From Somniosus microcephalus (taxonomy: Eukaryota), in NCBI GenBank assembly GCA_052327205.1, contig CM126204.1:341744001-341808000 (forward strand): DNA of 64,000 bases, in the 5' to 3' direction. The position numbers and the translations under genes are program-made. Positions 42,387-47,263 of this stretch are shown piece after piece. Numbering within the stretch: position 1 is the first letter of the stretch; every line of letters starts with the position of its first letter. The notes beneath the pieces were generated by a model. That model ran no database searches. It saw only the letters and a program-made list of their open reading frames with translations, and was not told where the DNA came from.

Positions 42387-42642
42387 TGTAGTGTATGTAA
42401 CTGTTCTACCTTTAAGAGAACTATTGTATGTAACCGTCCACCTTTAAGAGAACTATTTTAGGTGTGGCACTACTTTATCCTGGCTGCTGTATACTGTAAT
42501 ACCGACGGTGACCACACCGGTATATAAGTGCTGTGGCAGAATTTATTGGGCAGATTCGCCCTGACCTTCGAATAGTAAAGTCCTGTTTAAGTTACTCTTG
42601 TAGTCTGTGTATTACTTCGCTATACAACCCACAGACTTTACA
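42387..42642 (+). repeat. 5' LTR (256 bp)
   Basis: Matches 47008-47263 except two C>T changes at CpG; TATATAA box; internal ~33-bp duplication. Confidence 0.97.
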
Positions 42643-42643
42643 G

Positions 42644-42653
42644 TGGCGACGAG
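42644..42653 (+). promoter_or_regulatory. Primer-binding site, tRNA-Ser(GCT)-type
   Basis: TGGCGACGAG is complementary to ...CUCGUCG-CCA, the 3' end of vertebrate tRNA-Ser(GCT) as I recall it. Confidence 0.75.
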
Positions 42654-43955
42654 TTCGATCTTACCCTGCGGCAACAATACTTCTGAAGAAGTAAACGAGC
42701 GTCGAAAAGAGGCACCCGCCCTCGTCGTTTTGCTGAGAGAAAACTCGAGTCTGCAGACCAAGAAAGGAGGAAGATTTCAAATACGAAGTCTTCCATCAGC
42801 AACAGGCACGGATTGTCCCTTCTGCCACGGTGGTGAGTGAGCTGATCAACACGAGAAGCAAGTCGGCCACAGTGACTGTGAGTAAAGGGAAAATTAAAAA
42901 AAAATAAACGGAGGATAAGGGCAGTGAACTCGACCACGGTCGAGGGGGAAAGGAGCCGGACAGAAGTCGGGCCCAGGGGCGCTGAGACGGGGCAGTGTGG
43001 AGCACGGAAGCCGCGGTACAAGCGGGCTGGGGAGCGTTGTGAGACGGCTAGACCGCGACGGCGAAAAAGGCCGGACAACTACCGCGACCACGAGGCGCTG
43101 CGACCGGGATCGTAAGGCGCGGGAAGATATAAAAATAAATAAGCCACGGAGAACTCAGCCGCAGCCGGGGAGGAAAGCACCGGACTGCGAGAGGGCTGGG
43201 AGGCGCGATTGGAGCGAAAAAGGCCGGGCACCTACCGAGGCCGCGAGGCGCTGCGACCGGGATCATAAGGTGCGGAGGCAATAAATAAATAAATAACTAA
43301 ATAACCCGCGAAGAATCAGCCGCAGCCGGGGAGGAAAGGACCGGACTGCGGGAGGTCTGGGAGAGGCGTTTAAAGCCGCTGAGGGAGAGCCGCGCGAGCG
43401 GGAGAGACAGAGCCCGAGAGAGAGCGAGCGAGAGCCGAGCGAGCGGGAGAGACAGAGCCTGAGAGAGAGCGAGCGAGTGCCGCGTGAGCGGGAGAGACAG
43501 AGCCCGAGAGAGAGACCGAGCGAGGTTCCGGCCAGCGGCCTGCAGCAGCTGCCGTGAAGGACCAGGAGCTGGATCTGTCCGACGCCAACTGGTTGTCCCC
43601 AGCGCCGGTTGCCCCTGCCGAAAAGAAGAAGGGGGAACAAGGAACGCGATCGGCTTTTCTAGCGCGCGCTTCAGAATAAACTGAAGCCGGCGCACAGGCT
43701 ACAAACCCCGTAAACCAGCGGTCGTCGCCCAAGGGCAAAGCTTACCCCTCCCACCAGAGGAAGAAGTCAGGAGCGGGAAACCGCCATTTTGCCAGTAGGG
43801 GGGAAGAAGACAAGCGCAGGAAACCGCCATTTTGCCAGTAGGCGGGGAAGAAGACAAACGCGGGAAACCGCCATTTTTGGAAAAAAAAAAGAAAAAGTTA
43901 AAAAGTTAAAGAGAAATCCTGTTGTTTCGCAGAAAGATAGTGAGAGATAGTGAAG

Positions 43956-46607
43956 ATGCCTAAGCATGGTAACATCAACAACTTCGATGCCGAGGTGGAA
44001 GATTGGGCCACGTATGTAGAACGTATCGAGGTATATTGTGAGGCCAATAAAATAGAAGATGATGATAAAGCTATAACCTTGCTAAACTCGATGGGCGCGA
44101 AGACATACGGGTTATTGAAGCATCTTCTATCACCAGCTAAACCGGCGGATCAGACTTTCGATAATATTGTTGCTGTTCTGAAGGATCACTTGAACCCCAC
44201 ACCGCTGATGTTGGCGGAACGATTCAAATTTTATGCGAGAACGCAACGGAAAGAAGAAAGCAACGCGGAATACTTGGTCGAACTGCGTAGACTAGCGAAA
44301 TACTGCCAGTTTGGAGGAAATCTGACAAAGGCATTGCGAGACAAGTTCGTGTGCAGGCTGTCGAAGGAAGGAACGCAAAAGCGACTACTCGAAGAGAACG
44401 ACCTTACACTTGAGAGGGCTGTCCTTATTGCAGCATCGCACGAAGCCGCAGCGAAAGGAACTGCGGAAATGCAGCTAAAGGCAGCGGTACTCAGTGTGGA
44501 TCAAATTACTTCGGGTACAACGAAATGTTATCGTTGTGGGAAGACAACACACGACCAGAACCAATGCTTGTTTAAAAACCAGGAATGTAGAAAATGTGGC
44601 AAACTGGGTCACATAGCTAAAGTATGCCGGTCAGGAAAGAAGACCAACAACCAAAAAAAGCCATCACAGGGAAAGTACAACAAAGTACACAAGGTGGCTG
44701 AGAAGAGTTCAGACGAACAGAATTCGGATTCAGACCCAAACGGCCAGGAACTGGGTAGTCTGAGAATTCACAATGTGAGTAAGAAAGCTGACCTACAAAC
44801 TATCTGGGTCATGCTAAAAATAGCCGGAGTCCAAGTGAAAATGGAGTTGGACACTGGATCAGCCCTATCAGTCATAAATCGAAGGGATTACAACCGGCTA
44901 TTCTCACATATACCCTTGAGAGATACCAAGTTCGTATTGCAGACATACATGGGGCATAAAGTGTACCCCATGGGGAAGATAAGAGTCAAGGTGAGAGACA
45001 GGGGCAAAGAACACCCAGGAATGGACTTATATGTACTACCTGAGGGAGGACCACCACTTCTAGGACGGGAGTGGATCAAGAAAATAGACATGGAATGGCA
45101 CTACCTAAAAGCAATAACGAGTGAGGACTCGGTGCAGACAATCAGCTCAGACTCTGAAACGGATGACGATGAGACCAGCCCAAATATGAAAGACAAGTCT
45201 AAAATGAACTTGCTGACTGAGGTTAGAAAAACGAAGGCGTGCATAAAGGCTTATGCTCCAGAGGAGAACAAAGTTTCAGAACAGAATTCCACTGAACAAC
45301 AACAACATAGTTTGACAGAGAATTCTGAGTCTGTCCAGTTTACAGACATATACATTACTGAGGAACACCGAGCTCAAACTCAACTTTATTTCAAATTACA
45401 ACAGCAATTAGAACAATTGAGTTGCCATCTTGAGCAAGAGACAACAGCAATGAAAAAGTTCTTGGACACAGAGTGGGAGAATCTGGAAAGACAACAGAAG
45501 CAGCTGGGGGAGGAAATGGAGCAGGAGCACACAAACTGTCTGCGCGAGGAGGCCAAACGAATCAAAGCTGATTCGGTCTCTGAAGGTGCGTGCTCTAATC
45601 TAGTGGAGCAAGATGTTCAGCAACTGAAGGCGCTTGTTAGCAGGTTGCAGGCAGAAAAGGCTGATTTGGTCGCCATGAATTCCGAGCTCCTACTGAAGTC
45701 GGGTGCAGCATCACCGGACGATTCATTTGTGGAAATTCGAATGGTGGAGGCTGCGGATGATGGCGAAGTAGAAGCAGCAAAGGGACCCCAGTGCAAGGTT
45801 CTAAACAGCCCTGCAGCTAATGGGAAATGGATGATGGCAGAAGAGTTAACAGCCAGCCAACTCCTCCAGGGCAAGGTTATAAACAGCCCTGTAGTTAATG
45901 GAAAAGGGATGATGGCAGAAGAGTTAACAGTCAGCCAACTCATTCATATGCTGAGGGATAAAACTCTAAAATGGGAAAAACTTAAATACGAGCCTCAATC
46001 TTCAAAGGGAAGGGAGCTCTCAAAAGTCATTGGAAGAGCTGAGGTGGCAACCCAGACTGAGAAGTCTGCAGCAGAACAGCCCTTGGATGCCAAAAGTACG
46101 CTGACGCACGGAAATGTAGAACAACAGAATACTGAAACAGCTACTTCAGTAGAGGGATTGAATAGTCCGATCAATCAATCTCCGAATGAAGTTGAAGTAT
46201 TGAAATCACAAATGAGGTCATTAGTAAAAGACTTGCAGGAAGCCCAGAAAAAGCGGGATGAATCTGAACGCATGATGAAGTCTCTTCAGGACAGATGTCG
46301 GGATTTGGAACAAAAGTCGGCTAACGTCCAGCTGGGTAAGGAGGAAATAGAAGACCCTCTCGCTGGCCTAGCTCAGGACGACACCGAATATTACCATGAT
46401 CTGTTGAGTGGCACTGAATATTACGAGGACCTGGTCTGCCCAGCTTGTGCCGAGAACTCCCAAAGTGCCGAAATCAGGATGAATCACTTAAAGTCTAAGG
46501 AACATAGGGAGATGGTGGCGTTACAGCTGGCAGCTGACAATGGAGCTCCGAGAGTCTCCAAGAAGCAAAAAAAGGAAAAGACGAAGCAGAAGATGATAAC
46601 CATCTGA
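43956..46607 (+). CDS. Gag (two CCHC knuckles)-aspartic protease fused in frame to STK10/SLK-like coiled coil, optineurin fragment (LIR) and DNAJC21-like zinc finger; 883 aa from ATG
   Basis: [14 protein letters not shown] / [114 protein letters not shown]. Confidence 0.88.
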
Positions 46608-47007
46608 ACCATTATTACCTCTACCCGATCACACACGTGGTCCCCCGAACGGAGCCAAATCAGTTGGAAGGTAGGAAAATTTCCCAAGGCAATCCAACTG
46701 TTTTTTTTGTTTGTTTTAAAAAGTCAGCAATGCTGGTTCAGAAGTGATGGAAGTAAAGCTGTTAAGTCTAGGGAAGGACTATGGGATGAGTCCCTCTAGC
46801 AAGGTGACCCGACTACACCACGGAGGCGTGGTCCGGACCGAGTCAAGAAGATCAGAGACTGAATCTGTGAACTGTTTCCCGCAGAGACTGAATCTGTGAA
46901 CTGTTTCCGCAGAGACTACCTCTGTGAACTGTTGTAACATGAAGTTGGATATGTTATGATGTTATGTTAATGGGGAATAAGTATGTTGTAAGCTAAAAAG
47001 GGAGGAT

Positions 47008-47263
47008 TGTAGTGTATGTAACTGTTCTACCTTTAAGAGAACTATTGTATGTAACCGTCCACCTTTAAGAGAACTATTTTAGGTGTGGCACTACTTTATC
47101 CTGGCTGCTGTATACTGTAATACCGACGGTGACCACACTGGTATATAAGTGCTGTGGCAGAATTTATTGGGCAGATTTGCCCTGACCTTCGAATAGTAAA
47201 GTCCTGTTTAAGTTACTCTTGTAGTCTGTGTATTACTTCGCTATACAACCCACAGACTTTACA
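47008..47263 (+). repeat. 3' LTR (256 bp)
   Basis: Direct repeat of 42387-42642, preceded by the PPT and followed by TSD CTTTC. Confidence 0.97.

Follow-up and report, generated by a model that had tools for sequence, protein, structure and literature searches.

A young non-autonomous Ty3/Gypsy-type element of Somniosus microcephalus with host-derived cargo and a founding capture that looks like one turn of a circular STK10 RNA

We report that a 64,000-nt stretch of the Somniosus microcephalus genome (assembly GCA_052327205.1, contig CM126204.1, positions 341,744,001 to 341,808,000; hereafter the window) contains a young LTR element in which coding sequences of several host genes stand in the place of pol. 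The element is very probably a non-autonomous Ty3/Gypsy-type copy of a family that would have been founded by capture of an STK10 circular RNA (circRNA), altered by later template switches and amplified again, with a cargo that would now serve mainly as in-frame stuffer. The founding capture looks like one turn of the STK10 circle, a template to which the structure of the insert in sister elements points. The window copy is a descendant of this circRNA-derived retrocopy and not a high-confidence case by itself.

Architecture of the window element and donors of its cargo

All features lie on the forward strand and are given in window coordinates. Two 256-nt LTRs (TG...CA; 42387..42642 and 47008..47263), identical at 254 of 256 positions with two mismatches, are flanked by the same 5-bp target site duplication (TSD), CTTTC, at 42382..42386 and 47264..47268. 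The 5' LTR is followed by a PBS-like motif, TGGCGACGAG (42644..42653), which we take to match the 3' end of tRNA-Ser, and a polypurine tract (PPT) stands just before the 3' LTR (46995..47006); paired LTRs, TSD, PBS and PPT together mark an LTR retrotransposon. Downstream of an extended leader (42654..43955) that is rich in GC/GA and holds short tandem repeats, a single stop-free ORF (43956-46607) encodes 883 aa, which confirms the intact termini and the ORF of about 883 aa described in the initial annotation. The ORF begins with gag, including CCHC knuckles (aa 1-265; 43956..44750), followed by an aspartyl protease and linker (aa 266-386; 44751..45113). Pfam matches the zinc knuckle and the protease, both below gathering cut-offs, and gives no match in the window element to reverse transcriptase (RT), RNase H or integrase, in agreement with the earlier recognition of gag and protease without these enzymes. 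By this gene content, with the knuckle and protease matches below cut-off, the element is non-autonomous. No env-like ORF was seen in it, and Rfam gave no match across 41500-48500. An extra A near 46567 distinguishes the window copy from 29 of 29 sibling copies, and its ORF ends four codons later.

Behind the protease, the cargo combines pieces of three host genes. The first STK10 piece (45119..45363, 86.5% to host) is the 3' part of a large host exon, called exon 9, and covers aa ~400-479, while the second (45360..45571) consists of spliced parts of exons 11 and 12 that encode the PKK coiled coil (aa ~616-686; Pfam match above cut-off, E 1.3e-12) and is preceded by a deletion of aa 480-615 with 4 nt of microhomology. 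In protein comparisons, window aa 389-469 match shark STK10 400-478 (70%) and aa 469-539 match ~616-686; the STK10 kinase domain (aa 1-290) is absent. The following OPTN piece (45570..46340; window aa 539-795, best E 5.5e-73) comprises coiled coil of OPTN aa ~130-384 without the N-terminal or C-terminal domains, and includes the LIR core FVEI (45726-45737) and a 78-nt in-frame tandem duplication (45788..45943). An STK10 exon 8 bridge, EEIED (46341..46355), at which OPTN-bearing and DNAJC21-bearing forms meet, leads into a DNAJC21 piece (46356..46578) with a lysine-rich stretch and a decayed C2H2 zinc finger that keeps its four ligands. The end of STK10 exon 8, spliced to the start of exon 9 (46579..46790), lies mostly past the stop codon and is followed by an untranslated, decayed remnant of the C-terminal tail of the parent pol (46791..46880, ends approximate).

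The identification of STK10, OPTN and DNAJC21 in one frame holds, with DNAJC21 weak in the window copy (one match among 92 candidates, E 0.018; 19 of 35 positions identical) whereas a sister that has diverged less shows it more distinctly (26 of 38); both pairwise figures are against non-shark DNAJC21. The first count of at least three donors was sound and had missed a fourth, CGNL1, which is carried by sister elements (sequence search: 93%, E 9e-109) and for which the ESM Atlas returned myosin-tail clusters only. The lack of introns, at first noted as apparent for the cargo, is demonstrated for STK10 and presumed for OPTN, DNAJC21 and CGNL1. Wider spans of OPTN (51-432) and DNAJC21 (174-383) were rejected as coiled-coil overextension, DNA mapping placing OPTN at ~130-428 at most among the loci mapped. 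When the genome was searched with the complete OPTN, STK10 and DNAJC21 proteins, element copies crowded out the host genes; host STK10, the sole donor gene located, was found through its kinase part, and one pattern search of the genome for the host OPTN exon donor gave 0 matches. A DNAJC21-like J-domain exon lies at C3:356567764 (L043). A search of 1.84 billion proteins yielded 126 matches, of which the 14 examined by sequence are plain OPTN or STK10/SLK pieces.

The STK10 insert and its pol-bearing parent

In the sister element L071, five STK10 exons, spliced together and permuted in their order, occupy the place of RT-RNaseH-integrase, and one frame runs from gag-protease through STK10 386-704 and then STK10 291-388 into the pol tail. 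The five exons are 98.7-100% identical to those of the host, and the introns are absent. At the exon 12-exon 8 junction, a host splice donor is joined exactly to an acceptor 6.5 kb upstream; the donor and acceptor sequences have one genomic match each (controls 0). This back-splice junction, from downstream donor to upstream acceptor, is exact in L071, L034, L037 and L039 and occurs at 1,138 genome sites (control 0). The insert measures 1,245 nt from repeat to repeat, i.e., one turn, and both its entry and its exit lie at one host donor site. The window element lacks the junction because it was overwritten by OPTN and DNAJC21; the permuted order is kept, with exon 8/9 sequence downstream of exon 12.

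A related element in the same genome bears pol, with RT directly after the protease, in line with the earlier idea that the window element needs RT and integrase in trans. The pattern of the parent site has 270 matches; 93 of the 100 listed show a pol-type continuation, and both of the two fetched run into RT. The parent pol is known over about 100 codons of its RT part, whose start resembles a broken element at 36240-40140 in the window; the Mag-clade label is one that we assume from the PBS type and the single gag-pol frame. The parent breakpoints lie ~2.65 kb apart in three copies. At the parent's 5' breakpoint (pol/STK10), parent and host have 12 nt in common; at its 3' breakpoint (STK10/pol tail), the parent agrees with the same host donor site in 7 of 8 nt, L071 having the parent letter at the mismatch. 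Microsimilarity thus marks these two switch points as well as the 480-615 deletion (4 nt). The internal ORF is replaced, not interrupted, by STK10 sequence with its introns removed, as in LTR-mediated retrocopies, and the intron loss together with the microhomology at two junctions supports the original proposal that spliced host RNAs were captured one after another through template switches.

We propose that in a pol-bearing parent RT would have left the pol tail for a circular STK10 RNA packaged alongside, followed it through one complete turn, back-splice junction included, and returned to the parent template immediately behind the protease, so that 1,245 nt of host exons took the place of ~2.65 kb of pol in frame. 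The resulting structure is observed, while the circular template and its packaging are conjectured from it. Later switches would have removed STK10 480-615 and brought in either OPTN or else CGNL1 and DNAJC21, and OPTN and DNAJC21 may have come together when sister elements recombined; the junctions are present in the sequences, and nesting and shared substitutions suggest their order. The window subfamily would then have diverged by 11% from the host and amplified again, supplying its own Gag and protease, on which selection is evident (see below), and probably borrowing RT and integrase. Its cargo would be mainly in-frame stuffer, most of the amino-acid sequence drifting, with the open frame most likely maintained because a stop codon close to the 3' end of the RNA would spare it nonsense-mediated decay. 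A literature search for a host STK10 circular RNA by name found no paper. In RNA, element transcripts would confound detection of the exon 12-exon 8 junction from a host circle.

Copies, selection and competing readings

A count of copies across the genome, suggested at the outset, finds the STK10/OPTN junction at 3,831 sites, roughly 880 of which belong to the window subfamily of near-identical, dispersed copies (mean pairwise difference 1.0%). All 40 matches scored are 99-100% identical and spread over many contigs, 27 different 3' flanks occur among the 28 copies read, and 13 of 28 scored best-matching copies are already broken. OPTN-bearing forms outnumber those with the back-splice junction (3,831 vs 1,138). 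A further 5,534 copies have the shared tail but no STK10 sequence upstream of it. Window-type copies share two non-host letters with every class and four with the OPTN+DNAJC21 class; a tree on 355 nt resolves the window clade alone and not the order of the sister classes. Element sequence is present in sequencing runs under three organism labels from four studies. In two RNA runs chosen by species label, reads span the whole ORF and are mostly sense; the run index listed no RNA run carrying element sequence.

Purifying selection acts on gag and protease (omega 0.3-0.5). Compared with L051, L056 and L071, the three sisters with full-length gag, omega is 0.32-0.38 for gag and 0.41-0.46 for the protease (P at most 0.0015); the signal is weaker against the nearest sisters (0.51-0.66, P 0.02-0.19), and post-insertion singleton changes are neutral in gag (0.96). 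Omega of the cargo is ~0.55-2.2, its pieces not differing significantly from 1. Nonsense changes in the cargo number 0 vs 5.9-6.1 expected (P 0.002-0.003), a test somewhat inflated by the choice of an element with an open frame. Indels within the frame are net +51, -6 and +30 before the terminal region, and seven of the nine past the stop are non-triplet. Two stop codons that sister subfamilies seemed to have in common proved to result from misaligned CGNL1-bearing copies. The cargo frame is kept while most of its amino-acid sequence evolves neutrally (omega ~1). Of the selection on the fusion protein first suggested, the maintenance of an open frame (0 stops) therefore stands, whereas constraint on the cargo as a whole does not (omega ~1 vs 0.32-0.46 for gag and protease). 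Codons 519-604 are the sole cargo part that looks constrained, and recombination could explain this.

The permuted STK10 order could also stem from a linear template, either RNA joined by trans-splicing or two STK10 mRNAs between which RT jumped, as the host circle is itself conjectured rather than observed and non-colinear junctions can arise by other routes (Dong et al., PMC4897178). We consider this improbable: the junction falls exactly on a host donor and acceptor, and entry and exit at the same donor site give exactly one unit length, where an ordinary linear mRNA would yield no captured sequence. A trans-spliced tandem RNA would lead to an identical product, but such RNA is a less common source. 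Domestication of the window locus as a chimeric gene that benefits the host would fit the open frame and the family's transcription. Instead of a single fixed copy under purifying selection at the locus, however, we find ~880 near-identical dispersed copies, 13 of 28 scored best-matching ones broken, neutral singleton changes and no such chimera among 120 homologues listed or the 14 protein-search matches examined, which makes this reading very unlikely. The chance that the element is an assembly chimera or its host-gene similarity accidental is negligible in view of the 40 of 40 matches at 99-100%, the different 3' flanks in 27 of 28 copies and the three organism labels in four studies; the initial annotation had named a chimera or missing host-gene matches as grounds for its dismissal, and neither applies, with 3,831 junction sites.

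It is possible, if doubtful, that the cargo or part of it functions as a protein, a reading compatible with circular capture: an OPTN coiled coil with its LIR, released by the protease, might bind the ATG8 family or FIP200 and so shield particles or RNA from selective autophagy. The OPTN part lacks the ubiquitin-binding end. Codons 519-604 (45510..45767) show four synonymous (S) and one non-synonymous (N) lineage changes vs 29 and 87 elsewhere in the cargo (P 0.019). Codons 550-596, defined from a PDB optineurin peptide and the LIR, have one non-synonymous change in 47 codons vs 87 in 374 (Fisher P 0.0006) at a synonymous density that is not lower (P 0.57), and a scan test over stretches of 47 and 60 codons gives P 0.002-0.003. 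Variants shared in other subfamilies point the same way (3 S : 3 N vs 1 : 15 across the remainder of OPTN, P 0.046), but not significantly against all other cargo (P 0.10). OPTN-bearing sites outnumber junction-bearing ones (3,831 vs 1,138), and the human OPTN LIR binds the FIP200 Claw, though weakly when unphosphorylated (about 307 uM; PMC7946963). However, changes of all kinds are scarce in the tract (P 0.0002-0.006), as a recombination tract or RNA structure would give, and this low-change tract spans the STK10/OPTN junction, was first noticed through a sliding-window look and has an omega estimate based on five changes only. A shade less probable again is the broader proposal that, in the germline of the shark, Gypsy particles take up circRNAs of the host and copy them by single turns, and that the OPTN coiled coil and LIR of one lineage became a selected anti-autophagy decoy aiding its spread to thousands of copies. 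Should this be so, the retrotransposon would have a counter-defence gene of host origin, an accessory gene observed in the course of its assembly from host RNA.

Relation to known capture systems

Our preferred account, one-turn capture of an STK10 circle followed by further switches and re-amplification, touches on several known systems. Gag-onc fusions of acutely transforming retroviruses hold host coding sequence in frame with gag in place of pol and require a helper. The shark element likewise has host coding sequence fused to gag in frame where pol would be and needs a helper, but the analogy, drawn initially, is loose. No env-like ORF was seen, and the captured part is not a selected active signalling domain, the STK10 kinase being absent and the cargo mostly neutral (omega ~1 outside one tract); tumour growth in the one contrasts with germline amplification in the other.

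The capture of several genes by LTR elements has been published before, as have circRNA retrocopies associated with LTRs. Tan et al. 2016 (PMC5131818) describe LTR-mediated retrocopies in metazoans, 14 of 17 young fly cases being in frame. Common to these and the shark family are the partial replacement of the internal ORF by spliced host RNA with both LTRs kept, microsimilarity at switch points, multi-gene chimeras, further copying rounds and sense transcription. The shark family differs, as far as the main text of PMC5131818 goes, in thousands of copies, a staged subfamily series and a frame kept through 11% divergence; the founding shark donor is back-spliced, and 'circ' is absent from that main text. 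The maize LTR element Bs1 has a chimeric ORF put together from three host genes that it captured, and is reported to be transcribed and translated (review PMC13317346). Bs1 is a plant element for which the account there mentions no circular donor, whereas the shark elements form a vertebrate Gypsy family that drew on four donors and has its parent in the same genome. The literature covered, with subscription papers, Repbase/Dfam and supplements outside its scope, yielded no report of the element family and no base-level one-turn circle capture. The family would represent a fossil record of germline circRNA and a staged natural exon-shuffling series of four donors and about 5,000 copies, in which selection for an open frame can be separated from selection on the protein.

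The closest parallel is with the circRNA-derived pseudogenes of Dong et al. 2016 (PMC4897178), including 33 mouse circRFWD2 copies, which share with the shark family a non-colinear exon junction at splice sites, multiplication in the genome and an LTR association (MMERVK10C-int is marked in Fig. 1D). The mechanism is termed mysterious there, leaving open how circRNAs without poly(A) tails become genomic copies, and the main text gives no parent breakpoints, while supplements may show similar junction detail. In the shark family, parent, donor and product are seen at base level. This suggests a testable rule, namely entry and exit at a single donor site, one unit length and a short terminal repeat, for which the circRFWD2 copies of mouse and other genomes can be examined. 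Compared with circRFWD2 as presented in that main text, the shark family makes visible both parent breakpoints, the one-turn length and the in-frame fusion to gag-protease, in 1,138 copies.

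Structure, copy number and expression of the family

The element at 42387..47263 has the parts that the initial annotation assigned to it: two LTRs of 256 nt with 2 mismatched sites, a flanking CTTTC target-site duplication, a PBS-like motif, a polypurine tract and an 883-aa ORF (43956-46607). A gag knuckle, a protease and a PKK domain were detected in this ORF, and the domain search found no RT, RNase H or integrase in it, as had been claimed. The second half contains two pieces that match shark STK10, and it matches shark optineurin (OPTN) with a best E of 5.5e-73, which bears out both proposed donors; sharks were the source of the best named matches in the protein homologue searches. 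The third proposed donor, DNAJC21, is faint in the window copy (zinc finger, E 0.018; 19/35 identical in pairwise comparison) and clearer in the sister locus L037 (26/38). The leader at 43061-43888 contains several tandem repeats with 43-45 and 61-62 nt units, which differ from copy to copy. An abundant repeat surrounds the element (flanks 42200-42386 and 47264-47450), and RNA reads from empty-site relatives of this repeat skip the whole element.

Among 3,525 candidates in the 6.4 Gb genome, all 40 scored places match the cargo DNA at 99-100%; the pattern for the STK10/OPTN junction was matched 3,831 times and a control pattern 0 times. A diagnostic letter, present in 28/28 window-type and 0/30 other scored loci, recurs in 23 of the 100 junction matches listed, which puts the window subfamily at roughly 880 copies. 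The copy count suggested in the initial annotation thus yields many dispersed copies, with different 3' flanks in 27 of the 28 that are readable. The 29 sibling copies, top BLAST matches and as such a sample biased to young copies, differ by 1.0% on average; in 30 copies the frame is at least 870 aa long in 15, broken in 13 and unscored in two. One pair (L016 and L017, C7:12.36 and 12.43 Mb) has an identical flank and common deletions and is a segmental duplication, not two insertions. The window-element stretch is present in sequencing runs of three organism labels.

All 30 bins of the element are covered by two RNA runs from organism B, which may be a species other than that of the window. 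ORF bins in run X15 have a depth of 37-263 in the direction usually meaning sense RNA versus 0-25 in the other; run X16 is less biased. Because most reads are 95-99% alike (6,231/7,029 and 8,823/10,113 in the two runs) and 117/139 reads in the main X15 direction carry the sister-subfamily letter at position 45700, the transcription observed is that of the family, not of the window locus.

The founding STK10 capture and its parent element

The STK10 search returned 47 scored places matching aa about 376-704 at 88-94%, and in 46 of them a second match, from aa 290 onward, directly follows the first. The sister element L071, with LTRs 99.6% alike, encodes in one frame gag-PR, STK10 386-704, STK10 291-388 and a pol-like tail. 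The host STK10 gene is located on C8. The splice-acceptor pattern for aa 291 and the donor pattern for aa 704 have one genome match each, the acceptor lying 6.5 kb upstream of the donor. L071 contains all five exons of this host stretch without their introns, 98.7-100% identical and arranged as 9(3' part)-10-11-12-8-9(5' part), according to what we take to be the STK10 exon numbering (six upstream exons were seen). The back-splice junction occurs at 1,138 genome sites, and the insert comprises 1,245 nt from repeat to repeat. In the host gene, the third exon of the putative circle is followed (near C8:167193681) by an intron that apparently starts with GC rather than GT.

The parent is a related Gypsy element that retains pol after the protease. 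Its 5' breakpoint pattern with pol-type continuation has 270 genome matches; the continuation is seen in 93 of the 100 parent-site matches listed, and both parent copies read continue into RT. At this breakpoint 12 nt are common to the parent and STK10 exon 9. The 3' breakpoint lies ~2.65 kb further on, where the tail matches the same exon 9 site at 7/8 nt and L071 has the parent's version of the mismatched letter. As both ends are shared with the exon 9 site, one donor site was used by both switch points.

Pattern matches to this pol tail that lack STK10 upstream number 5,534, in several subfamilies; since only ~270 matched the parent 5' pattern, many of these elements may have deletions or different cargo. 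Some family members have open frames of 1,167-1,199 aa, which exceed any mapped layout and may hold further cargo (e.g., G000:C21:36469295, C1:177861365, C9:8744853). Related pol-bearing elements, about 70-90% alike in amino acids to the parent RT start, adjoin the L009 and L067 copies. Two other broken Gypsy elements in the window, 36240-40140 (-) and 29083-32421 (+), both have RT and RNase H domains and the former also integrase; at about 50% or less likeness to the parent RT start, they were rejected as direct parent.

Later captures and sister classes

The survey of loci L031-L070 revealed an STK10 480-615 deletion at a 4-nt microhomology and several cargo layouts. In 20 loci OPTN about 130-428 replaces the back-splice junction, and in 15 loci OPTN 130-384 is joined to DNAJC21 via a short STK10 bridge. 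Three loci (L034, L037, L039) keep the back-splice junction and have DNAJC21 together with 217 codons of CGNL1, a 93% match to the shark protein, which interrupt the STK10 PKK region without shifting the frame (L034:688-1338); CGNL1 is a fourth donor, which the window element lacks. L032 has undergone another deletion: gag is joined at aa about 120 straight to the OPTN piece end, and the protease and most cargo are lost (L032:1138-1770); L043 is not an element. In three places (C1:28889276-28889847, C1:147276472-147277043, C2:60728663-60729234) only about 540 nt separate the 5' breakpoint from the back-splice junction, which suggests a class that has undergone the 480-615 deletion without receiving any other insert.

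The layout of the window subfamily is OPTN-bridge-DNAJC21; it has 4 non-host letters in common with the class of that layout, and 2 with every class. Downstream of exon 12 sequence, at 46579-46790, it retains the end of STK10 exon 8 and the beginning of exon 9. It diverges from the host by 11.4%, versus 1.1-2.6% in the other classes. The tree supports the window clade alone, so the order of later captures rests on nesting. Each of the four donors supplied coiled-coil or acidic sequence rich in E/K/Q (window 45119-46578 and sister loci), and purine-rich microhomology could bias capture towards such sequence.

Selection, mechanism and known systems

With a matched mutation spectrum, gag and protease of the window copy are under purifying selection against three full-length sisters (omega 0.32-0.38 and 0.41-0.46, P at most 0.0015); the four nearest sisters give 0.51-0.66 (P 0.02-0.19). 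For singleton changes in gag omega is neutral (0.96), so it was replicating lineages that selection acted on, rather than copies already inserted. Selection on the fusion protein, as initially proposed, holds for the open frame but not for the individual cargo pieces, whose omegas are not significant (STK10 0.55-2.2, OPTN 0.77-0.92, DNAJC21 0.59-0.68). Among 133-135 cargo substitutions 0 are nonsense versus about 6 expected (P 0.002-0.003), and the indels within the frame sum to whole triplets up to the terminal region, whereas 7/9 of those past the stop codon do not. The OPTN, CGNL1, DNAJC21 and deletion junctions are likewise in frame in the open-frame copies printed. Microhomology in coding sequence by itself favours in-frame joins, which makes junction frames weaker evidence than stop and indel counts; for LTR-mediated retrocopies, PMC5131818 gives 14/17 in-frame joins.

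The analysis directly shows the structure, the donors, the parent breakpoints, the copy numbers, and selection on gag-PR and on the open frame. We consider it likely that the family arose by circle capture and ordered later captures, with RT and integrase supplied in trans and the frame kept for decay avoidance. A co-packaged STK10 circular RNA would have been copied for one turn by an RT entering and leaving at one donor site, and the other donors would have followed in sequence. A linear trans-spliced template could also yield permuted STK10. However, with both switches at one donor site a linear mRNA would capture nothing and a circle one turn, and we regard this alternative as improbable. 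RNase H would also block a second turn of copying.

Compatible with circle capture, a working OPTN decoy is a tentative and rather unlikely addition. Codons 519-604 take in the LIR core (on the OPTN LIR, see PMC7946963) and the OPTN coiled coil for which PDB 9IKQ/9M0O gave matches, and have 4 synonymous and 1 non-synonymous change versus 29 and 87 elsewhere in the cargo. Total changes are low there too, however, and recombination or RNA structure are therefore possible causes.

Literature searches returned no report of the window family, and none of a one-turn capture showing both breakpoints, a novelty that the supplements of PMC5131818 and PMC4897178 might affect. PMC4897178 describes mouse circRFWD2 copies near MMERVK10C and leaves their mechanism open. 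Multi-gene chimeras by LTR-mediated capture are already described in PMC5131818, and maize Bs1, as presented in PMC13317346, is a multi-gene LTR capture of this kind.
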